A DNA stretch of 64,000 nt from Thermodesulfobacteriota bacterium (GTDB taxonomy: Bacteria > Desulfobacterota_D > UBA1144 > Nemesobacterales > Mycalebacteriaceae). Both the position numbers and the translations under genes were made by a program. The notes below the pieces were generated by a model. The model made no database searches and was not told the DNA's origin. It saw only the letters and a list, made by a program, of their open reading frames with translations. Every line of letters begins with the position of its first letter. The stretch's first letter is position 1. Where the stretch lies: the NCBI GenBank assembly GCA_965205855.1, contig OZ242184.1:822570-886569 (forward strand), given 5' to 3'. Shown piece after piece: positions 6,481 through 55,020 of this stretch.

Positions 6481-6524
6481 ACGAGATACAATAAAAACAA
6501 AGCGACCGGAGCAAAGAGCAACTC

Positions 6525-6917
6525 TTAACTCAGTTCCACAGTGGCGCCGGCTTCTTCAAATTTCTTTTTTAACTCTTCCGCCTCTTCTTTTTTTAGCCCA
6601 TTTTTAATAAGTTTCGGGGCACTTTCAACGAGCTCTTTTGATTCCTTAAGGCCAAGAGAAGACACTTCTCTGACAACCTTAATAACCTGAATTTTGTTTG
6701 ACCCGATATCTTTAAGAGTAAGGTCAAACTCCGTTTTCTCACCCCCCTCTGCGGCTTCTTCACCTTGCGCGCCGGCGGCTGGTGCCGCGGCAACCGCAAA
6801 CTGAGGAGCGGCCTTGATATCAAACTTTTCCTCTATCTCTTTAATGAGATCTGATATCTCCATCATGCTTGCTTTCTCAAGGTAGTTGATTACCTCTTCT
6901 TTTGTTAAATCAGCCAT
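6525..6917 (-). CDS. rplL: 50S ribosomal protein L7/L12
   Basis: Translation [34 protein letters not shown]...[16 protein letters not shown]. Start taken at the ATG preceded by AGGAGG, not the longer ORF start at 7001. Confidence 0.93.
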
Positions 6918-7614
6918 CGCTGTTTTCCTCCTTTTTATTTTGATTGTCTGAAGATTGTTCAGTTTCGTTTTCCATCGGTACTTTACTCTGTTCATTTTCA
7001 TCTACTTTCATTTCGGTCTTTCCGTTTTTCGCGGCCGCCCCGCTTCTGCCTTCCTCAGGGTTATCCGAAATTTCCCCGGATTCTTTTGCCCGCCTCAGCG
7101 CCTCAAGAGAATGAACAAACCCAGAACGCATCTGGTCCATAACAGACACAAAGTTTGAAAGCGGAGTCAGAAGAGTTGAAGCAAACATTGATATGAGAAC
7201 CTTTCTTGAAGGCAGTTTTGATATTTGCTCAATATCAGCGGCTTCGCACACCTTGCCATCCATGAGTCCGCCTTTAAGAACAAAATCTTCAAATTCTTTG
7301 TGCGCTTGAATAAAAACCTTTGCTGTAGCCGGAAATTCTTGACCGCATATTGCAATCGCTGTCGGCCCTTCAAAAAGGTTTTTGATTTTTTCCACATCAG
7401 TGCCTTCACAAGCCTTGTGAAGAAGCTTGTTCTTAACAACACGCAACTCTGCATCAGTCTCCTTCACTTGCCTTCTGACCGACTGCATACTCTTAACTCC
7501 AAGCCCTCTGTATTCAATTACAAGAACTGAAGCCGGACCTTTGAAAATAACCGCAAGTTCGTCGATGGTTTTCTTTTTTTCTTGTTTTGTTTGCACCTTA
7601 TGCACCATCCTCAA
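6910..7614 (-). CDS. rplJ: 50S ribosomal protein L10, with an unusually long acidic C-terminal tail
   Basis: Translation [47 protein letters not shown]... is L10-like. Its position between rplA and rplL fits. The last ~55 aa are a low-complexity acidic stretch ([20 protein letters not shown]). Confidence 0.88.
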
Positions 7615-8323
7615 AACTTTTTATTTCCTCTTTGACGTTCATCAAGTCAATGTTGATGTTCGGTCCCATTGTGTTTGATATGCTGACTCTCTTAAAAAAT
7701 TCACCTTTTGAAGATGCAGGCTTCATTTTTTGAAGCGAAGAAAGAAGAAAAAGCATATTCTCTTTTAAATTGCGAGATTCAAATGAACTTTTCCCCAACA
7801 AGGTGTGAACAACCCCGCTCTTATCATTCTTTATCTCTATTCTTCCACTTTTTGACTGTTTTACAATTTTTGCGACATCATTTGTAACTGTTCCCATTTT
7901 TGGAGACGGCATCAAACCTCTCGGCCCAAGAAACTTTCCAAGTTTCCCCACCTTCGCCATTACATCCGGGGTTGCTATGGCAACATCAAAATCAAGCCAG
8001 TTCTCATTCTCTATTTTTTTTACCATATCTTTTAGTCCGGCATAATCTGCACCGGCTTCTATTGCTTCATCAGCCTTTTCCTCTTTGGTAAAAACAAGCA
8101 CTTTGAGGTTTTTCCCCGTGCCATGAGGCAGAACAATGGAGGTTCTTATCTGCTGGTCGGCGTGCTTCGGATCAATTCCAAGCTGCACTGCTACATCCAC
8201 GGATTCATCAAACTTCGCCGAATGTGTTTGAGAAATCAGTCCGACTGCTTCCCCAACGCTGAGTGCGGATTCTCTGTCAAATTTCCCGCATAATTCCTTG
8301 TATCTTTTGCCTCTTTTTATCAT
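7598..8323 (-). CDS. rplA: 50S ribosomal protein L1
   Basis: Translation MIKRGKRYKELCGKFDRES...VDVAVQLGIDPKHADQQIRTSIVLPHGTGK is a typical L1. Confidence 0.92.
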   Translation of the reverse strand: MIKRGKRYKELCGKFDRESALSVGEAVGLISQTHSAKFDESVDVAVQLGIDPKHADQQIRTSIVLPHGTGKNLKVLVFTKEEKADEAIEAGADYAGLKDMVKKIENENWLDFDVAIATPDVMAKVGKLGKFLGPRGLMPSPKMGTVTNDVAKIVKQSKSGRIEIKNDKSGVVHTLLGKSSFESRNLKENMLFLLSSLQKMKPASSKGEFFKRVSISNTMGPNINIDLMNVKEEIKSFEDGA

Positions 8324-8329
8324 AACAAG

Positions 8330-8746
8330 CTATACCACATCAATTCCCATACTTTTTGCGCTTCCGATAATGATATTTCTTGCCGCTTCCATATCATTCG
8401 CGTTCAAATCCTGCATTTTTGTCTCCGCTATCTCGTCAACCTGCTTAACGGTCACCTTTCCAACTTTTACCCTCGGAACATCCGACGACCCTTTTTCTAT
8501 CTTTGCCGCTTTTTTGAGAAGATAAGAAATCGGCGGAGCTTTGATTTCAAGAGAAAAAGTTTTGTCCTTGTAAACAGTGATGACAACCGGAAGCAAACCT
8601 TCTTTGCCCGAGGTTTTCTCATTAAACGCCTTGCAAAACTCCATTATGTTAATTCCCTTCTGCCCCAACGCCGGGCTGATTTGAGGAGAGGGAGATGCCT
8701 TTCCGGCCAGAACAAGCAATTTTAAATAACCATCTATCTCAGACAT
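8330..8746 (-). CDS. rplK: 50S ribosomal protein L11
   Basis: Translation [35 protein letters not shown] is L11-like. Confidence 0.93.
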
Positions 8747-8747
8747 T

Positions 8748-9317
8748 CTACATCTGCTCCAATTGATTGAAGTCCAACTCTATCGGGGTTGACCTTCCAA
8801 ATATATTTACCGAAACAAGAACTTTTCCCCTTTCCAGATTAATTTCCAGAATCACACCGGAAAGGTTGGAAAAAGGCCCTTCGACAACTTTCACGGTTTC
8901 ACCCTGCTCAAAAGATATATTGAGTTTAGGCTTAAGCGTCCCTTTCTGAATTTGAGTTTTCAGTTCCTCTATCTCTCTTTCATCAACGGACGAAACAGAT
9001 GCCGGGTCTATTCTACCCGCTCTCATTTCTTCGCCGACAAAGCCGTTAACTTTCGGCACATCCTTGATAAAATGCCAAGTCTGCTCTTTCATCTCCATAT
9101 TTACAAATACATAACCGGGGAAAAACATCTTCTCAGAAGTTTTCTTTTTCCCGTCTTTTTTTGACTCAACCAAGGTCTCAACGGGAAGCAAAACTTCGTC
9201 TATCGAAACATTTTCCTGAGAAGCACGCACTTTTTCTTCTATAAATGATTTCACCTTTTTCTCATATCCTGTGCTAACTTGCACCACATACCATTTTTTT
9301 TTGCCGTTAGATACCAT
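8748..9317 (-). CDS. nusG: transcription termination/antitermination factor NusG
   Basis: Translation [25 protein letters not shown]...[11 protein letters not shown]... with a KOW-like C-terminus. It sits in the secE-nusG-rplK context. Confidence 0.9.
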
Positions 9318-9346
9318 TTTTCCATCCTACAAAGAAACCGGAAATA

Positions 9347-9535
9347 TTATACCAGCACCAAACCTATCAGCGTTGAGAACAAATAATCGGCAATCGCAAG
9401 GATGACTGTAAACAACACTGATACAGCAAGAACAACGGCAGTGGACTTTATGGTGCTTTCTCGTCCGGGCCATGATATCTTCCAGAACTCAACTTCAACG
9501 TCCTTAATATATTGAGCTATTCTTCTTATATACAT
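9347..9535 (-). CDS. secE: preprotein translocase subunit SecE
   Basis: 62-aa protein with a single TM helix and the KISWPGRESTIKSTAVVL motif. It lies between tRNA-Trp and nusG. Confidence 0.85.
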   Translation of the reverse strand: MYIRRIAQYIKDVEVEFWKISWPGRESTIKSTAVVLAVSVLFTVILAIADYLFSTLIGLVLV

Positions 9536-9571
9536 TTCCTAACCTTTCACCTGACAACCAAGCAGTCAAAA

Positions 9572-9644
<73 letters not shown>

Positions 9645-9661
9645 TAAAATGTTCTTCGCAG

Positions 9662-10837
<1,176 letters not shown>

Positions 10838-30885: not shown

Positions 30886-31569
30886 GTGATGGCAGAGAAT
30901 CTTGCGTTATTGAAGGAGAGTCCTTTGCCGCTCAAAGCCGTCATATTTGACATGGACGGGGTGCTTATAGAAAGCGAGCCCCTGTGGGAAGCGGCGGAAA
31001 TCACCCTTCTCAAATCAAGAGGCATAGAATACGACCCTCTTTTCAGAGAAAAAGTTATCGGGCTCAATCAGATTGACTCATCAAAACTCATCATTCGGGA
31101 ATTTGGCGTGAAAAACTGTTCGCCCGAAGAGATGATAAGACAGCGTATAGAAATTCTTCTTGGGATTTACGATAAAAAACTCACAATGTTTGAAGGCTCT
31201 AAAGCGCTTGTTGAAAAGATACGGGAAAGCGGATTTAAGACCGCCCTGGCGTCCAGCTCACCCATGGAAGTGATAACGTATGTGCTTGAAAGGTTTTCAC
31301 TTACGAAACTTTTTGACGCGGTGGTTTCAGGTAGCTGCATTCAAAACGGCAAGCCCGCTCCCGATATCTACTTGCTCGCGGCGGAGCAGCTCGGGGTTCA
31401 ACCGCCTGAATGCGCCGCGGTTGAAGACTCGCCCATAGGAGTAAAATCCGCCGTTTCCGCCGGAATGTTCTGCATCGGCGTTCCCGACAAGCGGCTCAAA
31501 GCCGAAGAGTTTGAAATCTGTGATGTGATTTGTGAAAACATCGGGCAAGTGGAAAAAATAATCGCTTAA
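30886..31569 (+). CDS. HAD-family phosphatase (beta-PGM-like)
   Basis: Motifs AVIFDMDGVLIESEPLW and AVEDSPIGVKSAVSAGMFCIGV. Confidence 0.7.
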   Translation: MMAENLALLKESPLPLKAVIFDMDGVLIESEPLWEAAEITLLKSRGIEYDPLFREKVIGLNQIDSSKLIIREFGVKNCSPEEMIRQRIEILLGIYDKKLTMFEGSKALVEKIRESGFKTALASSSPMEVITYVLERFSLTKLFDAVVSGSCIQNGKPAPDIYLLAAEQLGVQPPECAAVEDSPIGVKSAVSAGMFCIGVPDKRLKAEEFEICDVICENIGQVEKIIA

Positions 31570-31576
31570 ATTTTCT

Positions 31577-32239
31577 TTAATCGCATGGCGACATAAAGCA
31601 GTTGGAATCATGCACATTACCCGGGCTGTAATCAGTTGACTTAATGAACCCATCTTCATCCACATTAATGTGCGCCTTGTAACCATAGGTACTTTTGCGC
31701 TTTCCATCCGACCCGGCTTTTACATTCCAGCCGACCTCGGGGTCTTGGGTCGAATGACCTTCCTGGTTCTTGTGGGGACGGCATTGCTTCGCTTCAATCA
31801 CACTGGCATCAACAATACTGACCCCTCCCGATTGGATGTAAAGCCCTTGTTCGCTCAATTGAGTGTTGATCTCACGGAGGCACTCATCCATTAAGGACAA
31901 GCTCTCCAGCGTTTGTCTAAACCGCCAAAACGTCGCGTGATTCGGCACAGATTCTGAAATGTCCAGACCGGTGAAGCGACGAAACAGCAGATCCCGTGCC
32001 AACTGCTTTTCCAGTGCCGGGTCACTGAGTCCGTACCAGCTTCGCAGCAATAAAGCTTTAAACATCATCAATGGTGGCCAGGCCTTCTCGCCCCGAGGGT
32101 TTGAATGAATACCTGAAAGCTGTTGCTCCAGGCGCGACCAATCGATTAATTCGTGCACGGCATCCAGTTCTTTGAGCGCATCATGCTCGAGCAACAGGCC
32201 ATCCGCCAAACTGCGTTGCCTGAGGTTTTTCCAGGCCAT
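31577..32239 (-). pseudogene. IS5-family DDE transposase, C-terminally truncated
   Basis: 220-aa ORF MAWKNLRQRSL...LSDPALEKQLARDLLFRRFTGL...STYGYKAHINVDEDGFI, which is the N-terminal two-thirds of the 39273..40257 transposase. Confidence 0.8.
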
Positions 32240-32336
32240 TTCTTCTTCTCCAGGGGGTATAGTGGTGGGGTATAGTGCTTGAGCCTATTATCGCAAATTC
32301 TCAACGCAGATTCTTCTGGTTTTATGCAAAGGTCTC
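31594..32336 (-). mobile_element. truncated IS5-family insertion sequence (copy 1, ~740 bp), covering the right ~60% of the element
   Basis: ~95% nucleotide identity to 39612..40345, including the terminal GAGACCTTTGCA inverted-repeat end at 32336. Similarity stops abruptly at 31594, 24 nt after the HAD gene stop. Confidence 0.8.
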
Positions 32337-32540
32337 TAATAAGTAGAACTGTCCGATCACAGACCTCCAGAAAACGCCGCGATGCCTCATTCTGGGTGGG
32401 ACGGCTTTCCGTCCACCCTCCGATAGCTGATAAGCTCGCTGATCAAGTACATCGAACAACATCGCTGTTAACTGTTTCGTTTCCAGGAAATGATGAAACT
32501 GCAAAATCACACTCTCATCGGGAAGACGATCATCGTCCAA
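32322..32540 (-). pseudogene. remnant of a second, different IS5-like transposase N-terminal domain
   Basis: 72-aa ORF with LPDESVILQFHHFLETKQLTAMLFDVLDQRAYQLSEGG. This resembles the InsH-type N-terminal motif (PDxTTLxxFRxxLxxxxLxxxLFxxV...GL) but is unrelated in sequence to the flanking IS copies. Confidence 0.3.
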
Positions 32541-32690
32541 ATCCTAATGCGCAAAACGACGCATCGATTCGACCTTTGGCATACTGTCTTCCGTTAGTGG
32601 GTCGGACAGGTACTGTTTTCCATCGGGTTTCGCGGCACTGTAAGCGAGGCAGGTGGCCTTCGTCACAAGCGTTGGCAACGAGCTACTATC

Positions 32691-35600
32691 TCAATCTTTA
32701 TTTTCCGCCTTAAAATGCTTCGCCTCGCCAATGAGCGCCTCTATTTCCTCTCTTTTGCTTGTCGTAAGCCTTCTCAAGCCAACGCGATTGACGATGTAAT
32801 CCAGAGGGGAGTGCCGGTTACGGTCAGCGGAAATAGCATCTAGTGCCAGGCCGAGCTTTTCTGGATAGGGAACCTGTTCCCAAGAGCGTTCTTCACCGCC
32901 AAATTCAAGGCCGCGAAACTTGAGTACTTTTTCAGGTGGCTGATGATGCGGCCAGAAAATGTTTTCCCCCGACGGGCCTTTTTGAATTCGGCGCTTTTTG
33001 TGAACTGCTGCCCTGACCGTTTTTTTGATTCGAGAACCGCTTCTCCGGAACCCATGCAATCGTGCCATCTTCTGGCAAAGATGTTCGTGGGTGATCGGCC
33101 CGAACCGGTCAATGATGTCAGTGCCCAAGTCCATCAGGGTAGAGCGATATTCGTCATCGTAGAAGGAATCCGAATCGAGTCTTCGATTTCCCTGTGTAGA
33201 ACTCCTGCCATCAAGCCGATCAGCTGCGGGTAGTGAGCTCCGTGGTTGCTCAATTGAGTTTTCCCTATCTTGCCCGGTTTGCTGAATTTCCCTATCGTGC
33301 GGCGAATTATGGGGCCGCGTGCGCGCAGCTTTGGGTGCCCGCTCCACTTTTTCCACGACAGCTGTTCGGAGATGGTTGCCGATCAGGACGTCAATTTCGT
33401 CGCCTTCTTCAGTTCCCAGGAGTGCTTCGCCCAACGGCGTAAAAGTGCCGACAATGCTGTTCGACGGATCGTTGTTTCGATCGTCCAGTGTCACTTTCAG
33501 AAATTCATCAGGGTCGTCCAGGTATCGAACCTGGACGGTGTCTCCAGGGCCGACGCCTACGCCGAAACCGTATTTTTCTTCTTCGGTGGCTTTTTGGTCA
33601 TCGTCGGATACCTCGCTGAGCTCATCATCTTCGATGGGCTGAACAATGGCAGTCGATTGCGTTTCCAGTGAAGTTTCGGTGAATTTATCAGCATTTCTTT
33701 TCAGATCTTCCATGCGTTGAGTAATAACGCCCCGCAGTATCTCGGCTTCGCGAGGAGGGTCATTGAACCAATCCGTCGACCAAATCCGGTGGAAATGCCA
33801 CCCGAGGCCCTCGAGCACCTCCTGGCGAAGTCTGTCGCGGTCTCTGGCGGATTTCGAGGAATGATAACTGGCACCGTCGCATTCGACCCCAAGAATGTAA
33901 CCGTGGGGCCAATTCGGATGTTTGACGCCGATATCGATAAAGTAGCCAGCAACGCCGACCTGTGGTACGGCCCCGCATCCCATCGCTTTAATCTGGTCGA
34001 TTACGAAAACCTCGAACTCCGAGCCAGGCTCCCCGGGGGCATGTGTCCCGCCTTCGAGTACCCCGGTTTCCGAGTAGTCGAGCCACCGCTTGAGCATGTA
34101 GGTTCCTGGGTTGCCGTTTTCATCCGCACGAATATCTGCAGCGGTCATTGATGAGAAAGTGATAATCTGCTCTTTGGCGCGTGAAAAGAGCACGTTCAAA
34201 CGGCGCTTACCTGCAAGTCCGTTGATGGGGCCAAAACGCTGCATGACCGGCCCGCCAGTGTTTTCGGATCCATAGACGGTTCCAATAAAAATTACGTCCC
34301 TTTCGTCGCCCTGAACATTTTCGAGATTCTTAATAAAGAAACTCTCAAGCCCATCGTTCTTCTCGTTCCAATAATTAACATAGTCTGCAGCCTTCTTCCT
34401 TGTCCTTAAAGCATCTTCCATCTCCTCGATCATCAGGTCTCGCTGTTTCTGATTCAGCGTGACGATACCGAGAGAGCGATCCGGGCTCCGTTCCATGAAA
34501 TCCAGCGCCGCATCGACCATCACCCGGGATTCCGGCCCGTTTATTCCCGATTGGTAAATACCGTCGACAGAGACGCGAGACACGCCCATGTCCTTGCGGC
34601 CCTCATGGGCGGAGGGAAAAACGATCAGCTTATCGTCATAAACGAGTTTGTTGGAAAACTTGATCAAGTCCGAATGGCGTGATCGATAATGCCAGCGGAG
34701 CTGCCTTTTTGGTCTGAACGCAGCGTTTGCCAGTTCGAGGATCGACTCATCCAGCACGGTCTCGTCCTCGTCCTCCTCGTCGATCATCCTGCGAAAGAAG
34801 GTGGTAGGGGGCAGTTGATTGGTGTCCCCAACGATCATCGTCTGTTTCGAGCGGATCAGCGCACCGAAGGCATCTTCGGGTGGCATTTGTGACGCTTCGT
34901 CGATGATGCAAAGATCGAACTCGACCGTGCCTCGGGGAAGGTATTGTGCAACGGCCAGCGGCGACATCATCCAACAGGGCTTCAACTCCTGAAGGGCTTT
35001 ACCTGATCTCTCAGCAAGGGCGCGCATGGGGACAAACCTTTTTTTCTTGCTTATTTCGTTTTCGATGAGCGCCCACTCAGTCAATTCAGATTTTTTGCCC
35101 ACTCGTATGCCTGGCGGCGGATTCGCAGATTGTTGAATGCGCTGTCTGATCATCTGTCTTGTAGATTGGATGATCTGCTTGTCCGCATTTGCGAGCTTTT
35201 CGCGTAGATCATCCAGTTTTGACCCATGAAAACGCCCTAAAACGGAATTAAAATCGTGATCGCGATAAACGCGCTTTGCCAGGCTCCTTGCAACCAGGGC
35301 ATTGGCGATTTTCGGGAGATCAGAAAGCGGGATGCAATTTTCCTGACAGATGTTCGCGAGTTTGGGGTGTCCGAATTTCGCAAAAGAATCCAGAGCAACT
35401 GCGTATTCGGAGCGCTTGTACATCTCTTCAGAATTATGGACGGCCTGTTTCAGGAAGTCGGCTATTTGAGCATTCGTCCGACCTGTACGGAAGTGGGCGT
35501 CATTCTGGCCTGTCAGGCCGGACAACGCGTTGAGCCGATTCGCCGCCATGCTTGATAAATTTAGATACTTTTCCAGTTGAGAACGGAAATCTGCAACTTT

Positions 35601-38600
35601 GTTATCGCGGATCAACTTGACGATGAGTTCTCGCCATTCTTCCACCGCTGGCAACACGGTTTTCGCAATGGAAAGTTCCGGTTCCGCGTCATTTGCGACG
35701 GTATCATGCCCACTAAACTGATCTTGGAGCAATGCTCGCACCGGCTCCTTATCCGTTAATTCCGCATGAATTTCGTGCAACCTGACAACATCACTCCGGA
35801 GCACCTGCAATCCGACGATGTCAAGCCGGTCCGCTGCGGGAATGTCCGACAGAAGTGTAGACAGCTCTTGGATTCCCGACTCGAAAGATTCTTTGCGCCG
35901 GGTTAACTCGTCAATTCGTTCCAGCAGGCTCTCGTAGTCTCCCTCCCATTCGGGAAGGGAAATCTTCGGGATAGACACGAGCAGATCCAGAGCGCCATGC
36001 TTCAGAACGTCACGGATCGCCAGCTTTTCTACACCGGGGAGCCTTTGCTCAACGACTTCGAAGAATTTCAGAAGGTTCCCGAAGGAAACGAAGTCGGTAT
36101 CAAGGCCCAGGTTGTGGAGTCCAAGGACACTGTCCAGGGCAGGCAGCTTGAAAAACCGGTCTTTTTCGTCAAGCCAATCAGACAACGCTTTGAGATCCGA
36201 TGCCGCAGAGACCCTGTCAAAGCGGGCCGCATAGGCAAGTTCCATATATGCTTGCTTGGCAGACCGATAGGACGGCGAGAGAAAACCAAACATCCCGGCC
36301 TCAGCGATCTGGCAAGCATGTTGCCGCAGGTGCTGAGGGTCAGTTTCCGTCTTTAGAGAAACCCGCGTACCCAAGTCGACCGCTGACCTTTTTAATTTCT
36401 CGCCGAGTTCGCAGACTTGCCGGATGACGATGGCAGCCTCAGGCGACGCGGTTGTTTCGTTCCTAAGTGCAAGAGCGGCACGGTCGGTCTTTTCGATGAT
36501 GCCAGCCGCACATTGGAGATCACATATCAAGAAGTCTCGGCACTCAGGAAATGCTTCAAGAAATGGCCTTAGTTTCGTGGAGAGAGCCTGGAGATCTTCG
36601 AGCTTGCTATTGTCTGCACCTTGCCTGCTTTCAAGCTCCTTGAGGCTGAGGGTTTCGAAGTCGTGCGCCTGACAGACACGTTCAATTTCGGTAAGCCGTT
36701 CATTCCAGACCGCGTCCATTGGCTCTCGGACGCTTCTTCCGATTTCATCAATGCGGTCGCGCAACGCATTGCAATCGGAAATGAACTGCTCGATATGATC
36801 GACCGAATCTTGGTCTAACAGCCGATCCACCAGATCTGCATCCGGGCGAGCTCCGGTAAGCTCCACACCATTAAGGCAGGATTTCAGAAGATCCAGATCC
36901 TGTTCGTATTGAGAACTCTCCATTCCCATATCGTTCAACGCTTGTTCCAGAACACTCAAGGAATGGAAAGATTTCTCCGCCGCGTTGGCAGTTTCACCAA
37001 TTTTCTCGACATCAAACTTACTGATATTCTCGACGCTCAAGCCTCGCCAGTAATCGCCGACGTCCTTCAGTTTTCCCCATGCACGCCCGAGGGATTCTGC
37101 GGCGCTGATAATGTTCTCAACCTGAGACGAAGACATGTCCTCGATTTGGTCGAAGTCGATGTCTCGAATTTCTTTGGGCAAGTTGTCTAGAATCTCGTGG
37201 GTGGCGATATTCTTTCCCAATATCTCATGGACGGAGAGCTCCGAATTTCCGAACTTCCTACCGATAACGGAAACGTATTCGGCGAGCTCTGCCCGATACT
37301 TGTTGAAATTCTCTCGAATACTTTCGAGATCGTGGTAATTACTCACAGTCTCCATCTCAACCCGGCCCCGAATCGACTGGATCACCTTTTCCTTTGTCGA
37401 ACGTTCGGCTTGAAGCGGTAGGACGAATTCGCCAAGGCCCACGGATTCGAGGCGCGATTTTACAATCTCAAGAGCGGCCATCTTTTCGGCCACGAAGAGC
37501 ACTTTCTTGCCAGAGCCCAACGCACACGCAATCGCATTCACGATCGTCTGGGATTTCCCTGTCCCCGGCGGCCCTTCGACTGCGAGGTTCCTTCCTTCGG
37601 CCAGGTCGACAAGTGTGCTGAACTGCGAGGAGTCCGCGTCCATAACAACGTATGGCACTTTTTCTTCGATTTCGGGGGCATCCATTTCATATTCCTCCTC
37701 GAACGGGGTCGCGGAGGAAGCTTCTGTACCGATAAGCATCGTCTCGATAATGTCGCTCTGTTCAAAAGTCGCACTGGATGTATCAAGATCGTGATACATT
37801 GCCATTCGAGAAGACGGGAAAACACCAAAGACAACTTGCCGGCGCACGCGGATATTGAGGTTACTGGGCAGCGCATCAGCGACGCGTTTCAAATAGTCCT
37901 CGACGGAACCGCCTTCGTAGCCTGGAAGTTCAATACCGAAATCTTGCTTAAGCTTCTCCGCAAGCACCAGATTCGTCTCGGCCTCATCGCCGCGGCCGTT
38001 AACCCGGAACTCCAGACCTTTGCGCGTTTTTTTCTTTTCCAGTTCGACCGGGAGAAGGACTATCGGAGAGAAGTAAACCCTGTCTTCCTTCGGTTCCTTC
38101 CATTCGAGAAAGCCGAAAGCTGCATGCAACACATTGATGCCGGATTCCTGAATCCATGTCCGGGATTTCGCCAAAATTCCATTCAGTTTCCGTTCGAACT
38201 CGCCGGGAAGAAGGAGAGTCTGGATATCCTCGTCAGTATGACGCCCGTCTTCATGTTCTTCCTCTGGCAGAGGAAGGTCGTAAGACGGGGAGATGTGATT
38301 GTTCTTTGCGTGCTGGGATAGTGACGTATCCCCCTGCTCTGCTCGGGGCAACATCCCCAGCTGCTCTCTTACGCGATCCTTCAGGTCACGGTCTATTTGC
38401 TCTTCGCGGTCGAGCGCCTCCGCCGCATCCGGATCGAGGTTTTGCAACTGCTCGAGATAGGCTTCGCCGACGGCACGGGCTTGGCTAAGCGCATTTCGGA
38501 ACTCTCGCGTCTGCTCGTCTTTTGGATCGTCTTCGAGGGACGGCAGGGGCACAAAGCGCATCGGTTTTTGGAGCGAGAGGTTCGCCATAAGCACGTCCGG

Positions 38601-38765
38601 CAATTCATCAACGATTCGTGCAAACGGTCCTCGCCGACCCAAATTCGCCGATATCAGAGGGTTGCGGCGCGTAAGATCAAGCAGTTTTCGGCGTAGATTC
38701 TCTACCTTGTCTTTCAGTATCTGGACAAACCCCTCTTGATCTGTGCTGTTTTCGACTCGATCCAT
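32691..38765 (-). CDS. giant (2024 aa) DUF4011-like / Upf1-like SF1 helicase / Vsr-type PD-(D/E)xK endonuclease / GreA-C-like multidomain protein; candidate Hhe-like defence helicase-nuclease
   Basis: N-terminus RRKLLDLTRRNPLISANLGRRGPFARIVDELPD (DUF4011-like). Walker A VEGPPGTGKSQ at aa ~398. After an ~880-aa coiled-coil-rich insert come DLCIIDEASQM (motif II), MIVGDTNQLPP, GIVTLNQKQRD, VQGDERDVIFIGTV and RLNVLFSRAKEQI. Next is a DUF559/Vsr-like block GYFIDIGVKHPNWPHGYILGVECDGASYHSSKSARDRDRLRQEVLEGLGWHFHRIWSTDWF, then a GreA-C-like segment GDTVQVRYLD...IVGTFTPLGEALLGTEEGDEIDV. Confidence 0.85.
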   Translation of the reverse strand: MDRVENSTDQEGFVQILKDKVENLRRKLLDLTRRNPLISANLGRRGPFARIVDELPDVLMANLSLQKPMRFVPLPSLEDDPKDEQTREFRNALSQARAVGEAYLEQLQNLDPDAAEALDREEQIDRDLKDRVREQLGMLPRAEQGDTSLSQHAKNNHISPSYDLPLPEEEHEDGRHTDEDIQTLLLPGEFERKLNGILAKSRTWIQESGINVLHAAFGFLEWKEPKEDRVYFSPIVLLPVELEKKKTRKGLEFRVNGRGDEAETNLVLAEKLKQDFGIELPGYEGGSVEDYLKRVADALPSNLNIRVRRQVVFGVFPSSRMAMYHDLDTSSATFEQSDIIETMLIGTEASSATPFEEEYEMDAPEIEEKVPYVVMDADSSQFSTLVDLAEGRNLAVEGPPGTGKSQTIVNAIACALGSGKKVLFVAEKMAALEIVKSRLESVGLGEFVLPLQAERSTKEKVIQSIRGRVEMETVSNYHDLESIRENFNKYRAELAEYVSVIGRKFGNSELSVHEILGKNIATHEILDNLPKEIRDIDFDQIEDMSSSQVENIISAAESLGRAWGKLKDVGDYWRGLSVENISKFDVEKIGETANAAEKSFHSLSVLEQALNDMGMESSQYEQDLDLLKSCLNGVELTGARPDADLVDRLLDQDSVDHIEQFISDCNALRDRIDEIGRSVREPMDAVWNERLTEIERVCQAHDFETLSLKELESRQGADNSKLEDLQALSTKLRPFLEAFPECRDFLICDLQCAAGIIEKTDRAALALRNETTASPEAAIVIRQVCELGEKLKRSAVDLGTRVSLKTETDPQHLRQHACQIAEAGMFGFLSPSYRSAKQAYMELAYAARFDRVSAASDLKALSDWLDEKDRFFKLPALDSVLGLHNLGLDTDFVSFGNLLKFFEVVEQRLPGVEKLAIRDVLKHGALDLLVSIPKISLPEWEGDYESLLERIDELTRRKESFESGIQELSTLLSDIPAADRLDIVGLQVLRSDVVRLHEIHAELTDKEPVRALLQDQFSGHDTVANDAEPELSIAKTVLPAVEEWRELIVKLIRDNKVADFRSQLEKYLNLSSMAANRLNALSGLTGQNDAHFRTGRTNAQIADFLKQAVHNSEEMYKRSEYAVALDSFAKFGHPKLANICQENCIPLSDLPKIANALVARSLAKRVYRDHDFNSVLGRFHGSKLDDLREKLANADKQIIQSTRQMIRQRIQQSANPPPGIRVGKKSELTEWALIENEISKKKRFVPMRALAERSGKALQELKPCWMMSPLAVAQYLPRGTVEFDLCIIDEASQMPPEDAFGALIRSKQTMIVGDTNQLPPTTFFRRMIDEEDEDETVLDESILELANAAFRPKRQLRWHYRSRHSDLIKFSNKLVYDDKLIVFPSAHEGRKDMGVSRVSVDGIYQSGINGPESRVMVDAALDFMERSPDRSLGIVTLNQKQRDLMIEEMEDALRTRKKAADYVNYWNEKNDGLESFFIKNLENVQGDERDVIFIGTVYGSENTGGPVMQRFGPINGLAGKRRLNVLFSRAKEQIITFSSMTAADIRADENGNPGTYMLKRWLDYSETGVLEGGTHAPGEPGSEFEVFVIDQIKAMGCGAVPQVGVAGYFIDIGVKHPNWPHGYILGVECDGASYHSSKSARDRDRLRQEVLEGLGWHFHRIWSTDWFNDPPREAEILRGVITQRMEDLKRNADKFTETSLETQSTAIVQPIEDDELSEVSDDDQKATEEEKYGFGVGVGPGDTVQVRYLDDPDEFLKVTLDDRNNDPSNSIVGTFTPLGEALLGTEEGDEIDVLIGNHLRTAVVEKVERAPKAARTRPHNSPHDREIQQTGQDRENSIEQPRSSLPAADRLDGRSSTQGNRRLDSDSFYDDEYRSTLMDLGTDIIDRFGPITHEHLCQKMARLHGFRRSGSRIKKTVRAAVHKKRRIQKGPSGENIFWPHHQPPEKVLKFRGLEFGGEERSWEQVPYPEKLGLALDAISADRNRHSPLDYIVNRVGLRRLTTSKREEIEALIGEAKHFKAENKD

Positions 38766-39136
38766 TTTTGTCTCTTTACTCAGTTGTTTGACTGTAACAT
38801 CAGCCTATGGGATTAGTTTGACATAGAGTGATTCATCGTCAAAATATCCTATAGCCACTGCCTATTAGCGACGATTATGCGATTTTTTGAGATGCTAGTT
38901 AAGGGGAATCTAATGAAATTCATAGCCACGCTGGCGACTCTGCCCAGAACTGCCGACCTGCTGACTCTATCAAACATCGATCCTTATTTTACAACATGTC
39001 ATATGACTAACAGAACTTGGACCTCGGCTCACACAGATCTAAATTTCTTGTTCCCAAATAACATCAATCTAGATCCTATATAATCAAGCACATCAACACT
39101 ATATCGCTTGTGGTGGCGACTGGAATACTGAGATTA

Positions 39137-40345
39137 GAGACCTTTGCACGGACACATTGTAGAGTTTATCAGTTCTTCAAACGGGCTTTTTTTTGAGAAA
39201 AATGCCCAAAAAGCACTCAATCAGCCGTATTGGTTGGCCGATTAGCCCATCTTTCCACCCCTTTTTCATTTTTTAGGCGCAACTTGCCTGCTGAAGCGAT
39301 AAACCCCGCTTGATATTGTCGGCGACGCACATCAACTCAAAGCGCGTGCGGTTACGGCCAAGACCCAGGTAGCGGGCTTTGCCCATCCCGTAGTGTAGCT
39401 TTAACACCCCAAAGACACGTTCCACCGTACAGCGTACCCCCGAATGAAGCCGGTTAAACTTCCTCCCCTGTGCATCCAACGGCTGGTTGCGATAAGCCAC
39501 GTTTGATGATCCGATTATCTATCTGTCGCTCCGCCAGCCACGGGTCGTGAGCCTGACTACGATAAGCATTATCCGCATAAACCGCCGTCTCATCGCCGCT
39601 TAATAAATCCGTAAAGCAGTTGGAATCATGCACATGACCCGGGCTGTAGTCGGTTGACTTAATGAACCCATCTTCATCCACATTAATGTGCGCCTTGTAA
39701 CCATAGGTACTTTTGCGCTTTCCATCCGACCCGGCTTTCACATTCCAGCCGACCTCGGGGTCTTGGGTCGAATGACCTTCCTGGTTCTTGTGGGGACGGC
39801 ATTGCTTCGCTTCAATCACACTGGCATCAACAATACTGACCCCTCCCGATTGGATGTAAAGCCCTTGTTCGCTCAATTGAGTGTTGATCTCACCCAGGCA
39901 CGCATCCATCAAGGATAAGCGCTCCAGCGTTTGTCTAAACCGCCACAACGTCGCGTGATCCGGCACCGATTCTGAAATGTCCAGACCGGTGAAGCGACGA
40001 AACAGCAGATCCCGTGCCAATTGCTTTTCCAGTGCCGGGTCACTGAGTCCGTACCAGCTTCGCAGCAACAAAGCTTTAAACATCATCAATGGTGGCCAGG
40101 CCTTCTCGCCCCGAGGGTTTGAATGAATACCTGAAAGCTGTTGCTCCAGGCGCGACCAATCGATTAATTCGTGCACAGCATCCAGTTCTTTGAGCGCATC
40201 ATGATCGATCAACAGGCCATCCGTCAAACTGCGTTGCCTGAGGTTTTTCCAGGCCATTTCTTCTCCAGTGGAGGGGTATAGTGCTTGGGCGGCCTATTAT
40301 CTCAAATCCTCAACGTAGGTTCTTCTGGTTTTATGCAAAGGTCTC
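39137..40345 (-). mobile_element. full-length IS5-family insertion sequence (copy 2, ~1.2 kb) with terminal inverted repeats GAGACCTTTGCA
   Basis: Inverted-repeat-left GAGACCTTTGCAcgg at 39137 and inverted-repeat-right tatGCAAAGGTCTC ending at 40345. The internal transposase is in the same orientation as copy 1. Confidence 0.8.
39273..40257 (-). pseudogene. IS5-family DDE transposase, split by a frameshift near 39480-39500
   Basis: ORFs 39454..40257 (...TAVYADNAYRSQ...IIKRG) and 39273..39500 (AYRNQPLDAQGRKFNRLHSGVRCTVERVFGVLK...) together make a typical ~320-aa IS5 transposase in two frames. Confidence 0.75.
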
Positions 40346-40370
40346 AATTTAAGAAATAAGAATAGTAATG

Positions 40371-40420
40371 GGGTCAGAGTAATATTTATCCCCCATGGTT
40401 TCTTAATTCGACTCTGACCC
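40371..40420 (-). terminator. perfect 10-bp inverted repeat GGGTCAGAGT...ACTCTGACCC (30-nt loop) followed by a T-rich tract on the minus strand; putative terminator of the 40437..41510 gene, abutting the IS end
   Basis: Seen directly. On the minus strand the hairpin is followed by CATTACTATTCTTATTTCTT. Confidence 0.4.
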
Positions 40421-40436
40421 TTATTGTTTCCTTTCG

Positions 40437-41510
40437 TTATTTTTCACTAATGATATATGGGAACTGTATTTTATAACGCATTGCATTGTTTGCGTTATCG
40501 TCAATTGCTACACCGGTCATTAGCTGTAATACCGTATTCATCGCATCGTCGTGCAAGGCACGTCCGTTAAGGCCGTTCACCGTATAATTCGCCTTTGTAC
40601 CGATTTTGTAATTCATAATATCCGGCATCACCATATCAGCCACCTTGTATGCATGTTTTTTTGCTACGGCAGGCTTTGCGCCAGCCACTGATGTCGCCCA
40701 AAAAACATTGTGAATAATCGTCTGGCGTCTTTCCGCAACATCTAAATCGGGACGATGTTGCCCATGATCTTCATGCACAGCGGGTGTATCAGAAAGAAAG
40801 ACATAAGGGAAAAGTACATTCGCGTGGCGATCAACCTGACACCACTCATCTTTGTAAAAAACTGATGTTGTTGTAAAAAACTTAACTTCACTCCCTAACA
40901 TTTTATTAGGAACATCCACCACAATAAAACTCGCCGTTGCACCTATAAATAAATCTCCATCTTCTTTAAAAATCTCCGGCGCAAAAGTGCCTTTTTGTTT
41001 AGCTGCATTAAATTTAGCTAATCCCACACCATTTCCAAAAAAAGGATCATTGCCTCTACCCACCCAAACACGCATGCCGTTTGATAGGTTTATTTTTTTA
41101 CCCACCTGCCCATTACCTGTCGGCTTTCCTTTTTCTCCCACTTTCGCATTGGGAGTATCTATTTTTGAGATAGAAACGTTTCCTTTTTGAAAAGAGAACA
41201 CCAGTGTCATACCTTTTTTAAAAGCCATATCTTGCGCAAAATGAAGATTATAAAGCCCACCTTGAGCAAACACTACACCAGCAGGTGACGTGCCTGTTCC
41301 TGGCTGACTCGGATTAGATGAAGAGATAAAAGAGGTATACCCCTTATTGCTAGACTGGAACACATAAGTGTCATTAAGATCATAAGCAGGATACTTGCCC
41401 TGCAAACCCGATATAAAGTGCCCAGAAGCATGCACAGTACCCACCGCATAAGCTAAACCTAATAATGCGGTTACAAATATAAATCCACTTTTTATAATAC
41501 TATTTTTCAT
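40437..41510 (-). CDS. secreted hypothetical protein (signal peptide; possibly DUF4331-like)
   Basis: N-terminus MKNSIIKSGFIFVTALLGLAYAVGTVHA is a Sec signal. It is a G/N/K-rich mature protein with ...NGRALHDDAMNTVLQ... and lies in an AT-rich (~38% GC) segment. Confidence 0.5.
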   Translation of the reverse strand: MKNSIIKSGFIFVTALLGLAYAVGTVHASGHFISGLQGKYPAYDLNDTYVFQSSNKGYTSFISSSNPSQPGTGTSPAGVVFAQGGLYNLHFAQDMAFKKGMTLVFSFQKGNVSISKIDTPNAKVGEKGKPTGNGQVGKKINLSNGMRVWVGRGNDPFFGNGVGLAKFNAAKQKGTFAPEIFKEDGDLFIGATASFIVVDVPNKMLGSEVKFFTTTSVFYKDEWCQVDRHANVLFPYVFLSDTPAVHEDHGQHRPDLDVAERRQTIIHNVFWATSVAGAKPAVAKKHAYKVADMVMPDIMNYKIGTKANYTVNGLNGRALHDDAMNTVLQLMTGVAIDDNANNAMRYKIQFPYIISEK

Positions 41511-41567
41511 ATTACATACCCTCTTTGATTATTAATTTTGATTATTAATATAGGGGAATTATATACG

Positions 41568-42398
41568 ATGTTAGCCATATTTAATAACATTCCTGACCAA
41601 AGTATCTGGACTGCCTACCAGCATTACATCAAACTTCAGGGATGGTTCAACCCGAGCGGACTGGAACTCATGGCGCCTAAGCACAATGGGACTTATGCAT
41701 GTAGGCACTGGCGAGGGACCCCAGATTATTCAGATGCAAATGACAACTACTTTCCACATTACAAACTATCCGTGGATGCAACGGAAGAGACTCTAATAAA
41801 AGATATTGAAAACTTAAAAAAAAATCTCAAAGAGGGTCTGCATGCAAATCTACAACTGAATGTTTTGCTATATTCGCTTCACGCCTACAAACCGCTCCTG
41901 CAAGCAAGGCAAAACTGCCCCGTGCGCATAAGCCCTGTTGCCTTAAACAAAGACGAAGCGGACTTTGTTGAATTTCTGGTTCAAGTTGTAAGAAGCGAAG
42001 ATATTGACAAGGAGATTTATCTGATGCGCAACCTGACCAAAGGGAAAGGCATTTCCTTCTTTGACACCCACTCTTTTTATCCTGACTTCATACTTTGGAT
42101 GAAAGACGGTAAAAGACAGGACATTCTCTTTATAGACCCAAAAGGTCTTCAAAAGTTTGACAGAAAAACCAAATCCAAAACGGGTTTGCACAAGCAGATA
42201 AAAGAAACAGAAAAGAAGATTCAAAAGAAAAATCCCAAACTTTTTCTTCACTCCTATATCTGGTCAACAACCCATCCTCAGGACATTGGTTCCGATAAGA
42301 ATCTCACGGAAGAAGAACTCAAGAAGTCGGGAGTCTTCTTTGCTTCAAATAGAAAGTCTGAACTTAAAGAACTTTTGAACCATGCTCTCAAGAACTGA
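41568..42398 (+). CDS. hypothetical protein with a PD-(D/E)xK-like nuclease motif
   Basis: Translation ...[37 protein letters not shown]... (PD ... D-x-K). ATG at 41568 is preceded by GGGG. The ORF-track TTG start at 41538 is less likely. AT-rich sequence with a K-rich C-terminus. Confidence 0.5.
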
Positions 42399-42401
42399 CC
42401 G

Positions 42402-42890
42402 CTACCGGTTCTTCGGAAAGTCAAAATCAACCATTTCCGATTTCGCGGTTGAGATATTCGCCCACAGTTCCGCATCAGTTTCAATATGAACAACCCCGCA
42501 GGTCGGAACATTCCCTATTGTCTTGCCCGTAAGAGAGTTGGCCAAATCGGTTATGGCAAAATTATGGCAGAAAACGGCGACTGTGGAAAAACTCTCGTCG
42601 ATTGACTCAACAGCCCGAAGAAGAGAAGTTTCGTCAAAAGTGTAAAACGCCTCGTCGCTTATTATGTTTTCGGGTGCGAACCCGGCGCTCTGCGCGAGAA
42701 GTTTTGCCGTGTCAAGTCCCCTTCTCGCCGAACTTGAATAGAAAGCATCAAACTGCACCGGTGTTTTTTTCAAGCGAAGACCCATGTGCGAAGCGTCTGC
42801 AATACCCCTCCCGGAAAGCGGCCGGTCAAAATCCACGACCCGTTCTTTTCGGGAAGATTTCGCGTGGCGGATTAAAAAAAGCGTTTTCAT
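42402..42890 (-). CDS. histidine-phosphatase-family protein (SixA-like)
   Basis: N-terminus LFLIRHAKSSRK...RPLSGRGIADASHMG carries the RHG motif of the phosphoglycerate-mutase/SixA family. Confidence 0.7.
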   Translation of the reverse strand: MKTLFLIRHAKSSRKERVVDFDRPLSGRGIADASHMGLRLKKTPVQFDAFYSSSARRGLDTAKLLAQSAGFAPENIISDEAFYTFDETSLLRAVESIDESFSTVAVFCHNFAITDLANSLTGKTIGNVPTCGVVHIETDAELWANISTAKSEMVDFDFPKNR

Positions 42891-45073
42891 TTTACTCGCG
42901 CGAGTTTTCGGACAAACTGCCTGGACACCTCCACCGAAGAAGCGTAGAAATTCGCCTTGCTCGGCCCGTAACCTATTTTGATTGAATACGCCCGTTCGGG
43001 AAGCTCTCCGAACATATCTTCATCCGTCATATCGTCCCCCATTGCTATAACGCAATCCCAATCGCCCGGAAGCCAACGGCGGGTTGAAGCCCCTTTGCTA
43101 ACTGAAAAATGCCTCACTTCTATGACTTTGTTTCCATGCATAATATTGAGCCCGAGATTTTGTACGATGCCGGCAAGAGTCTCATTCAACTCCCCCACCC
43201 TGACAACGGCAAGAGACGGATCGACCCCCCTGTAGTGCCACGCGAGAGAGTAATCTTTTTTTTCCACAAAAGAGCCCGGTGTTCTGTCGGTAAAAATTTC
43301 AAGAATTAGTGAAACATCTTTTTTCCAATCAGTGGCGGGAGAAACCGCACGCTCCCATTTTGCGCCGTCCTTTATCCACGCTCCGTGCTCCGCGACAATG
43401 CAATCGCTCACGTTTCCCAGCCATTTTGAAAGGGTTTTTCTGTCCCTGCCGCTTACAATAACAAGTTTCGCGCGGGGATTTGAATTAATCGCGCGCAGGC
43501 ACTTTTTAATTTCTTCATCGGGTTTCGCGTCATGGGGATTTTTTCTGAACGGAACAAGAGTGCCATCATAGTCAAGAAAAACAATAGATTTACGGCTTGC
43601 CCGGAATCTTTGGATAATTTCTCCTGATACTCTTGTTGAAAGGAATTTTGAAGACATCTCCCCCTGCCGTTTTTTCATACTGCGCAGTTTGTCCATAAAA
43701 TCATTTTTCCAGCGCATAAGGTCATACCTTATAAGCCTGTCTCTCATTGCCTTCATTTTCCGTTTGCGCTCCGCTGCTGGCATTTCAAGAGCTGACAGCA
43801 AAGCGGCCGAAGTCATTGATATATCATTGGGATTTACAATCAAAGCCTCGCCAAGCTCTCTTGAAGTCCCGGCTGTTTCGCTGAGTATCAACATACCAAG
43901 CCCTTCCGGTCGGGAAGCGACATACTCCTTCGCAATAAGGTTCATTCCGTCACGCGACGGGGTAATAAACAAAACATCCGCAAGAGAGTAAAGAGAAACC
44001 ATCCCCTGAAAATTAAAAGATCTGTAAAGATATTTAATCGGCTCCCAGTTGAGAGTTCCCCATTTGCCATTTATTTCACTAACCATCCGTTCAATGTTTG
44101 AGCGCAAAGCCCTGTAGCGGCCCACTTCGGTTCGTGAAGGAACAGCGACAAGCAAAAGTATGACTTTGCCCTTCCAACCGGGGTTTTCTTTTAGAAACAA
44201 GTTGTAGGCTTCAAGGCGTTTTTCTATGCCCTTTGTGTAGTCCAGCCTATCTATTGAGAGGATGACGCGGCAGTGGTCCGAAAAAAGCCTCTTCTTTTTT
44301 TTCCTGTATTTTTTGACCGCGGGGGATTTAAGAGCAGATGCAAACTTCTCCACATCCACTCCCATAGGAAACATATCCGCCTTTACAAGACGCTCTCCGA
44401 CCGAAAGAACACCGAGAGAGTTTTCAATCTGTTTAACCCTTCTGACACTTTCAGCAAAATGCCTCACATAATCAAAGGTGTGAAACCCGATTAAGTCCGC
44501 GCCGAGCAGGCCGTCTATTATCTCGGAACAAGCGGGAATAGACCTGAATATCTCAGAAGACGGAAACGGCGTGTGCAGAAAAAACCCTATTTCGGCATCC
44601 GGAAGCTTGTCTCTGAGAAGTGAGGGAAGCAACATCAGGTGATAGTCGTGTATCCAGATGGTATCGTCCTCTTTCGCGATTTTCAGAACGGCACGGGCAA
44701 ATTTCTCATTAACATTCCGGTAATCCCTGTAGTAATCATCTTTGTATTCGGCAAACTGCGGAAAATAATGAAAAAGCGGCCAGATGGTTGAATTGCAAAA
44801 ACCGTTGTAATATCCGTCGGTTTCCTTGTCGTCGAGAAAAACCGGCGACAGATGTTTGTCCGCAAGAGCGCGTTCAAGTTTGCGGCGCTCTTCGCCGTTT
44901 AATGAAGAGAATGAAACTCCGGGCCATCCGACCCAGACTTGCCGCTTTCCGAATTGCAAGCCACCAACCCCGGTCGCAAGTCCTCCGACATTGCGGTTGA
45001 GAACAAATCTCCCCTGTTTCCTCAATCCGGCGGAAAACGGAAGACGGTTTGAAACTGTTATTATCTTTGGCAT
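42887..45073 (-). CDS. otsAB: bifunctional trehalose-6-phosphate synthase / trehalose-6-phosphatase (OtsA-OtsB fusion)
   Basis: N-terminal GT20 domain (IITVSNRLPFS..., FLHTPFPSSEIFR, WIHDYHLMLLP) and a C-terminal HAD phosphatase (IVFLDYDGTLVPF...IAMGDDMTDEDMF). Confidence 0.85.
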   Translation of the reverse strand: MPKIITVSNRLPFSAGLRKQGRFVLNRNVGGLATGVGGLQFGKRQVWVGWPGVSFSSLNGEERRKLERALADKHLSPVFLDDKETDGYYNGFCNSTIWPLFHYFPQFAEYKDDYYRDYRNVNEKFARAVLKIAKEDDTIWIHDYHLMLLPSLLRDKLPDAEIGFFLHTPFPSSEIFRSIPACSEIIDGLLGADLIGFHTFDYVRHFAESVRRVKQIENSLGVLSVGERLVKADMFPMGVDVEKFASALKSPAVKKYRKKKKRLFSDHCRVILSIDRLDYTKGIEKRLEAYNLFLKENPGWKGKVILLLVAVPSRTEVGRYRALRSNIERMVSEINGKWGTLNWEPIKYLYRSFNFQGMVSLYSLADVLFITPSRDGMNLIAKEYVASRPEGLGMLILSETAGTSRELGEALIVNPNDISMTSAALLSALEMPAAERKRKMKAMRDRLIRYDLMRWKNDFMDKLRSMKKRQGEMSSKFLSTRVSGEIIQRFRASRKSIVFLDYDGTLVPFRKNPHDAKPDEEIKKCLRAINSNPRAKLVIVSGRDRKTLSKWLGNVSDCIVAEHGAWIKDGAKWERAVSPATDWKKDVSLILEIFTDRTPGSFVEKKDYSLAWHYRGVDPSLAVVRVGELNETLAGIVQNLGLNIMHGNKVIEVRHFSVSKGASTRRWLPGDWDCVIAMGDDMTDEDMFGELPERAYSIKIGYGPSKANFYASSVEVSRQFVRKLARVK

Positions 45074-54546: not shown

Positions 54547-55020
54547 TCAGCGTTCTCCTTCGGGGGTTTTGTCGGGGTATTGTGCAACGTCCTCTACCTC
54601 TTTAAGAAACTGGCTCACATCGTCAAACGATTTGTAGACGGAAGCGAAACGCAGATACGCAACCTTGTCAAAAGAGCGTAGTTTTTCCATAATGTGTTCC
54701 CCGACCTCGTGCGCGGGTATTTCGCGCTCGCCTTTGCTTGCGAGTTCACCCTCTATTTTGAGCACGAAATTCTCAATTGCTTCGGCGGTTATTCCGCGTT
54801 TTTCACAGGCTTTTTTAACGCCGTCAAGGATTTTTTCCCTTCTAAAACTCTCTTTGCGCCCATCTTTTTTCAGAATGGAAATCCTAACCTCGGGACGCTC
54901 GTATGTAGTAAACCGCTTCTTGCACGCAGTGCACTCCCTCCTACGGCGTATGGAAGGTGTCTCATCGTTGCTACGAGAGTCTAAAACACTTGTGTCTCCC
55001 ATGCAGAAAACGCACTTCAA
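54547..55020 (-). CDS. nrdR: transcriptional repressor NrdR
   Basis: [16 protein letters not shown] zinc ribbon plus ATP-cone ([14 protein letters not shown]). Confidence 0.9.

Follow-up and report, generated by a model that had tools for sequence, protein, structure and literature searches.

A low-GC islet beside an IS5-family element is probably an IS-linked DUF4331 gene next to a remnant of a Type III res gene

The low-GC islet that follows an IS5-family insertion sequence in this Thermodesulfobacteriota contig consists, with high probability, of two adjacent pieces of debris from mobile DNA, unrelated to each other, within a variable hotspot. The first piece comprises the IS5-family element together with a gene for a secreted DUF4331-family protein. 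The second reads, by profile comparison, as what is left, in scrambled form, of the 3′ end of a Type III restriction gene (res) of approximately 1050 codons, that is, a res pseudogene fragment. Both components are of known kinds, one a restriction-gene relic and the other an IS-linked passenger gene of a Pfam DUF family, and the islet forms a corner of a hotspot of defence and accessory genes that has been churned by IS elements. All positions refer to the window, the whole stretch of 64,000 nucleotides that was analyzed; L088 in the following list is a locus in another assembly.

31570–42886, no strand: accessory segment of 11.3 kb between the conserved HAD-hydrolase gene (30886–31569) and the OtsA/B fusion gene (42887–45073), delimited by tblastx/tblastn synteny
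31594–32336, minus strand: partial copy of the same IS5-family element, with a 220-aa transposase fragment (31577–32239; Pfam DUF772 and DDE_Tnp_1)
32691–38765, minus strand: Hhe/PDC-S37-type defence helicase-nuclease of 2024 aa, flanked by two IS5 copies (PADLOC, Pfam)
39137–40346, minus strand: IS5-family insertion sequence, its transposase split into two ORFs (39454–40257 and 39273–39500; NCBIfam, terminal repeats)
40371–40420, minus strand: hairpin with a perfect 10-bp stem and then a U-rich tract (inverted repeat and folding), probable DUF4331 terminator
40437–41510, minus strand: DUF4331-family secreted or periplasmic protein of 357 aa (Pfam PF14224), IS5-linked passenger gene
41511–41555, no strand: region upstream of the DUF4331 gene that is still common to L088 (alignment and sequence)
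41538 or 41568 to 42398, plus strand: nuclease ORF of 286 aa (from TTG 41538) or 276 aa (from ATG 41568; ORF calling)
41556–41661, no strand: AT-rich DNA of approximately 105 bp without a match, which supplies ATG 41568 and the first ~30 codons of the ORF
41662–41736, plus strand: res helicase-domain fragment in frame +1 with respect to the ORF (profile positions 554–578, i-E 5.4e-11)
41730–42389, plus strand: C-terminal PD-(D/E)xK endonuclease domain of res, in the ORF frame (profile positions 824–1051 of 1052, i-E 2.7e-62)
42402–42890, minus strand: SixA-like protein of the histidine-phosphatase superfamily, 162 aa (Pfam His_Phos_1, E 1.2e-10)

The sequence features of the islet listed in the earlier note all held up in our re-analysis. 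The ~2-kb block is the lowest-GC 2 kb of the window: the GC content of 40347–42398 is 0.400, whereas the window averages 0.47 (sd 0.029 among 2052-bp windows; z = −2.46). None of 620 sampled 2052-bp windows was as low, and the minimum among them (0.401) came from one that overlaps the islet. Another low-GC stretch (0.41–0.43) lies at approximately 3800–9800. The DUF4331 gene and the nuclease ORF are divergent and 27–57 nt apart, and a gap of 3 nt separates the ORF from the convergent gene at 42402–42890. The perfect 10-bp inverted repeat between the IS and the islet genes has its arms at 40371–40380 (GGGTCAGAGT) and 40411–40420 (ACTCTGACCC) with 30 nt between them, and the U-rich tract lies 3′ of the hairpin on the sense strand of the DUF4331 gene. 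The folding energy of the hairpin is −21.1 kcal/mol (z-score only −1.69). Judged from these features, the hairpin is the probable terminator of the DUF4331 gene.

The IS5 transposase matches the NCBIfam model transpos_IS5_4 (NF033581) with 182.8 bits against a cut-off of 140. Terminal inverted repeats of 12 bp bound the element (GAGACCTTTGCA at 39137; TGCAAAGGTCTC up to 40345, with the right end at 40345/40346), and it is assigned to the IS5 family by its DDE transposase together with these repeats. A protein 99% identical to the DUF4331 protein (P0163) is encoded at L088 on a 1.77-Mb contig in an unrelated gene neighborhood, and positions 39137–41536 of the window align with L088 9975–12370 at 96.75% identity over 2400 bp. 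The shared block takes in all of the IS5, the hairpin-bearing spacer, the DUF4331 gene, and 26 nt upstream of it. At this end the window carries a 13-bp tandem duplication (TTTGATTATTAAT at 41524–41536 and 41537–41549), and once it is allowed for, the homology breaks off at approximately 41555, ~45 bp upstream of the start codon of the DUF4331 gene. The block at L088 was the only near-identical second copy found. There, two inverted IS5 copies, right ends inward, enclose the DUF4331 gene, and no nuclease ORF adjoins it; these copies are 92% identical to the IS5 of the window and their transposases are single ORFs of 327–332 aa.

In this, the L088 locus, with its 96.75% identical block, resembles IS5 composite transposons and other IS-bounded passengers, and the Hhe gene in the window is likewise bracketed by two IS5 copies. 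The DUF4331 gene of the window differs from this arrangement in that a single IS copy with a split transposase lies beside it and no target-site duplication was identified; a search by eye around the IS, or around the IS and DUF4331 unit, gave none that was convincing. The view that the ~2-kb block is of foreign composition and tied to the IS is supported by its GC content, by the adjoining IS5, and by the IS5 and DUF4331 block shared with L088.

The 357-aa protein scores 43.1 bits against Pfam DUF4331 (PF14224; gathering score 27, E 4.3e-11) and its N-terminus, MKNSIIKSGFIFVTALLGLAYAVGTVHA followed by SG, reads as a Sec signal peptide, which bears out both the signal peptide and the possible DUF4331 identity proposed earlier. 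We found 42 homologs at 42–99% identity, nearly all of them ~357 aa in length and every one with a precomputed PF14224 match; those with names come from marine Alphaproteobacteria, e.g., Leisingera, Ruegeria, Parasedimentitalea, Pelagibius, and Roseibium. The Pfam model has 421 positions, whereas the protein in the window is shorter and aligns with it in three stretches, as a member of a tight ~357-aa subfamily. The AF2 model is confident (pLDDT 82.8) and mostly composed of beta strands, and a structure search with it returned no significant neighbor in the PDB. PADLOC gave no meaningful match for the protein, none of the papers in the searchable literature set mentions the family, and a metagenome scan for relatives yielded a single 1.7-kb contig, too short for gene context. 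The gene contexts of other subfamily members vary. At L091, the homolog abuts an IS3-type transposase, with a group II intron reverse transcriptase adjoining; at L092 and L093, genes for a LysR regulator and a cytochrome P460 lie on either side of it; and at L089, it lies among unrelated genes. Because of the block shared with L088 and these varied contexts, the DUF4331 gene reads as singleton cargo, tied here to IS5 rather than to the nuclease ORF.

On the other side of the intergenic region, the nuclease ORF carries the motifs YPDF (D183) and FIDPKG (D200 and K202), which together with E140 and Q194 are invariant in an 18-sequence family alignment. The hPDF...IDPK arrangement pointed out previously is therefore real, and a probable restriction-type PD-(D/E)xK core is supported by the invariant D...D-x-K and by a PADLOC match to REase_III (PDLC03654; E 9.4e-16), in which ORF residues 111–250 align with model positions 947–1094 of 1154. 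The ORF had no match in Pfam, NCBIfam, or PHROGs, and an exact-sequence look-up of the 276-aa protein returned no recorded gene call. Sequence searches of the PDB with the single ORF, the family profile, and a full-length relative gave only chance matches, so that this res subfamily is not detectably related by sequence to the EcoP15I chains in the PDB; this fits with the disorder of the endonuclease domain in the EcoP15I crystal structure (PMC4490356).

A word-indexed homology search recovered only 18 relatives of 195–433 aa. When 1.84 billion representative proteins were searched exhaustively with a profile, 1685 matched the nuclease-domain family, and most of the best matches listed are proteins of 1020–1120 aa that align C-terminally, at residues ~700–1080. 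These full-length relatives carry a Walker A motif (GSGKT) and DEGH; Pfam ResIII was located near the N-terminus in all three members tested, and two members tested against PADLOC REase_III matched with E values of 1e-161 and 1e-238. At L001 and L004, the res gene lies downstream of a Type III Mod of 951 or 1049 aa (PADLOC MTase_III, E 7e-209 and 3e-195), and at L005 an N6_N4 methyltransferase and a ResIII gene are also found upstream. The full-length relatives of the ORF share the canonical architecture and position of Type III Res, in which a PD-(D/E)XK domain at the C-terminus comes after an SF2 ATPase and a helical spacer (PMC8259958, PMC4490356), and the endonuclease domain of the ORF and the C-terminus of this Res family are homologous.

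We then derived a 1052-position res profile from 80 full-length members and ran it, filters off, against the six-frame translation of the window. The profile matches at exactly two places, 41662–41736 and 41730–42389. In the first, 24 of 27 residues are identical to residues 547–573 of P0020 (tblastn), within the conserved helicase segment of relatives whose identity elsewhere is only ~40%. The second runs through 228 profile positions without a stop or frameshift, keeps all 22 invariant family residues, including D183, D200, and K202, and has a score density of 0.87 bits per position (0.87–1.04 in relatives); the closest res relatives are only 51–54% identical. Profile positions 1–553 and 579–823 are absent from the window, and with them the N-terminal SF2 helicase/ATPase domain. 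Since only these two pieces match, codons 1–553 and ~245 internal codons would have been lost, with a change of frame at approximately 41733. A tblastn search of the whole 64-kb window with three Mod proteins from the homolog loci gave a best E value of only 0.26, and the neighbors of the ORF are the DUF4331 gene and the histidine phosphatase gene rather than a mod gene.

The stretch at 41556–41661, the source of the first ~30 codons of the ORF, matches neither the res profile (filters off) nor L088. We also considered the N-terminus (frame 0, 41556–41645) as degenerate res displaced by a 19-nt insertion, and this was rejected, as the profile supports only two residues (GW). In the AF2 model of the ORF, pLDDT falls below 50 for residues 1–64, 68–80, and 100–115 and is mostly 81–94 from ~120 to 286. 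The predicted disorder of the N-terminus agrees with a chimeric, non-native start: the ORF is a chimeric leftover frame whose first ~60 residues are not native protein.

Type III restriction depends on Mod as well as on Res, with DNA recognition provided by Mod, and the nuclease domains are active only inside the Mod2Res complex (PMC8259958, PMC4490356). In contrast to such systems, the window retains only 228 of 1052 res profile positions in frame and 25 out of frame, and it lacks the ATPase domain, the helical spacer, and a mod gene. Because Type III cleavage needs site recognition by Mod and inter-site communication by the Res ATPase, the 276/286-aa ORF most likely has no restriction function, as would be expected of a relic. 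Broken genes are also found at all seven loci that carry the nearest nuclease-domain homologs (L001–L007), as follows.

L001 and L005: res broken by a frameshift
L004: res broken by an in-frame stop
L002: res truncated at the 5′ end beside an IS1595 transposase
L006 and L007: res truncated at the 5′ end
L003: res with an internal deletion of positions 278–809

The frameshifts at L001 (7x coverage) and L005 are possibly sequencing errors, as several homolog loci come from long-read metagenome assemblies. Res relics are common in this subfamily.

The strongest competing explanation is that the shortened ORF was retained as a functional, free-standing PD-(D/E)xK nuclease, such as an orphan restriction-like enzyme, a toxin, or a defence effector, with a divergent promoter shared with the DUF4331 gene. 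Its catalytic residues and core are intact and modeled at high confidence, its profile score density equals that of its relatives, and it has an open frame with an ATG at 41568 in a defence and IS island with the Hhe gene nearby. A promoter-like GTTACA-17-TATAAT at 41470–41498 is directed into the ORF; however, this site is weak, and three promoter-like sites were found where 5.1 were expected from shuffles. The first ~60 residues are encoded by DNA that is either out of frame or non-homologous, and disorder is predicted for them; in addition, the helicase-motif fragment in another frame shows that the ORF was born of an accidental deletion. At other loci, the short homologs are themselves parts of broken res genes rather than a conserved stand-alone family, and Type III nuclease domains work only in complex with Mod (PMC8259958, PMC4490356). 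On this balance we regard a working stand-alone nuclease as unlikely, and the orphan or defence nuclease with a partner that the earlier note envisaged is not supported by a remnant in which only res positions 554–578 (out of frame) and 824–1051 survive. It is similarly unlikely that a decapitated Res nuclease domain with an accidental N-terminus was co-opted as a free nuclease transcribed from the DUF4331 upstream region delivered by IS5.

Far less probable still is a functional two-gene module in which the DUF4331 gene and the nuclease ORF were acquired together. The two genes have a similarly low GC content (0.406 and 0.407, respectively), and their divergent layout around a short common intergenic region with an IS alongside would suit such a module. 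Their GC3 values are unlike (0.335 vs 0.43), however, and the nuclease ORF is a gene fragment. No DUF4331 gene was called at the seven loci with homologs of the res C-terminus, and no res-like gene was found among the called genes at the five loci with DUF4331 homologs (L088, L089, L091, L092, and L093), so that the two are neighbors in none of the 12 other loci examined. With this lack of co-occurrence, which the earlier note itself had named as a refutation, and with the near-identical DUF4331 and IS5 block at L088 ending before the ORF, the reading of the islet as one separately acquired module of nuclease and partner is refuted. The last alternative, that res only seems broken through an assembly or sequencing artefact while the genome holds an intact Type III system, can draw on the possible errors in the long-read homolog loci but is extremely improbable for the window, where ~800 codons are missing rather than one base, their space is taken up by the intact DUF4331 gene and the IS, no further helicase and no mod sequence occur within the 64 kb, and the identical 276-aa product is recorded at NCBI and ENA on a 1.4-Mb contig.

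The debris explanation also fits the surroundings of the islet, which belongs to an accessory segment. In the closest relative found, the Thermodesulfobacteriota MAG L055 (73% OtsAB identity), both sides of this segment are colinear with the window and 31570–42886 is missing: L055 1–12207 corresponds to window positions 54996–42858 and then jumps straight to 31545 and downwards, with the HAD gene ~50 bp after OtsAB. In three more distant relatives (L009, L010, and L013), 1.1–7.3 kb of other DNA occupies the OtsAB/HAD junction. Within the segment, the order is the partial IS5, the Hhe/PDC-S37 gene, the full IS5, DUF4331, the res relic, and the SixA-like gene. The partial IS5 copy is 94.5% identical to positions 39612–40345 over 746 bp, in direct orientation. 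The 2024-aa protein between the two copies matches PADLOC PDC-S37 (E = 0) and Hhe (E 2.3e-229) and contains the Pfam domains DUF4011, AAA_11/12, MTES_1575, and DUF3320. At the other end, the phosphatase gene and the end of the OtsA/B gene share 4 nt, and no such gene lies downstream of OtsAB in any of the 11 relatives tested. The designation SixA-like holds at the level of the His_Phos_1 superfamily only, as the score against TIGR00249 sixA (45.7 bits) is below the equivalog cut-off of 74.5.

Taking these results together, we propose the following history for the two pieces of debris. The first piece (39137 to ~41555), an IS5-family element plus the DUF4331 gene as passenger and a terminator hairpin of its own, which falls within the block common to the window and L088, may move, or may recently have moved, between genomes as an IS5-bounded unit. 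The second piece (~41662–42398) would be what is left of a Type III restriction-modification system that once stood at this site beside the phosphatase gene. Its ancestral res of ~1050 codons, encoding helicase and nuclease, would have lost the first ~553 codons, and presumably the mod partner too, together with ~245 internal codons and the reading frame between them. The result would be 25 out-of-frame helicase-motif codons fused to the last ~228 codons, which encode the PD-(D/E)xK nuclease domain. The arrival of IS5 and DUF4331, or an IS-mediated deletion beside them, probably removed mod and the 5′ two-thirds of res, and the remnant appears to be non-functional and its decay recent.

Some observations sit less easily with this explanation. 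The nuclease domain is undamaged and stands in an open frame with a usable ATG, which can be explained by a recent truncation and equally by retention under selection. In addition, ~105 bp (41556–41661) between the IS5 and DUF4331 block and the first res base are unaccounted for, and the block at L088 stands alone as a near-identical second copy.

The significance of these findings is mostly limited to annotation hygiene. The 276-aa ORF is best annotated as a res pseudogene fragment rather than as a hypothetical protein or an orphan nuclease, and the DUF4331 gene is better recognized as IS-linked cargo. If a co-opted nuclease domain did prove true, it would be an example of a recycled restriction-enzyme fragment. 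The IS5 element probably carries cargo between genomes at ~97% identity, namely the DUF4331 gene and apparently the Hhe defence gene next door, and in this Thermodesulfobacteriota-like lineage the OtsAB/HAD junction is a hotspot of repeated integration. For this subfamily of Type III Res, the seven broken loci out of seven fit with a frequent inactivation of restriction genes.

The junction between OtsAB and the HAD-hydrolase gene is a variable hotspot in the Thermodesulfobacteriota-like lineage of the window. The two flanking genes are separated by 11.3 kb in the window (31570-42886), but by only about 50 bp in L055, a Thermodesulfobacteriota MAG and the closest relative found. In the more distant relatives L009, L010, and L013, the junction holds 1.1-7.3 kb of other DNA. 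The following features were assigned at this junction in the window:

31594-32336 and 39137-40346, IS5 copies bracketing the Hhe-type gene
32691-38765, minus strand, Hhe/PDC-S37-type defence helicase-nuclease of 2024 aa (PADLOC E = 0)
39273-40257, minus strand, IS5 transposase in two ORFs (267 aa + 75 aa)
41524-41549, perfect 13-bp tandem duplication (TTTGATTATTAAT x2) in the upstream region of the DUF4331 gene
42402-42890, minus strand, SixA-like histidine phosphatase gene, sharing 4 nt with the end of the OtsA/B fusion gene

The 2024-aa protein combines DUF4011, AAA_11/12, MTES_1575, and DUF3320 domains with a GreA/GreB C-terminal-like stretch. Its gene is flanked by two IS5 copies in direct orientation, 94.5% identical to each other, a layout that looks like a composite transposon carrying the defence gene as cargo. 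The split of the IS5 transposase is probably an inactivating frameshift; the IS5 copies at L088, a locus with a DUF4331 homolog, are 92% identical to the window copy and encode single-protein transposases of 327-332 aa.

The SixA-like gene has a host-like GC of 0.49, yet downstream of OtsAB it is missing from all 11 relatives checked. Elsewhere in the window, a second low-GC stretch lies at about 3800-9800, where GC measured in 2-kb windows is 0.41-0.43. A 1491-aa ORF (2005-6480) overlaps this stretch, as do several smaller ORFs.

At the seven loci carrying the nearest homologs of the res C-terminal nuclease domain (L001-L007), the res gene of this Type III subfamily is broken in every case, through a frameshift, an in-frame stop, a 5' truncation beside IS1595, or an internal deletion. 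Some of these breaks may be long-read sequencing errors (coverage at L001 is 7x). In L001 and L005, mod and res are separated by additional genes (AbiJ_NTD4 and DUF4365).

Upstream of the DUF4331 gene, TTTGATTATTAAT occurs twice in the window versus once in L088, and this duplication is the source of the TTG at 41538, which starts the relic res ORF when it is read in its longer form of 286 aa. In two metagenome contigs (L092, 5001-6724; L093, 1279-3002), a cytochrome P460 gene lies 81 nt downstream of the DUF4331 homolog on the same strand, and a LysR regulator precedes the homolog. This shared neighbourhood may give a clue to what proteins of this DUF4331 subfamily do.
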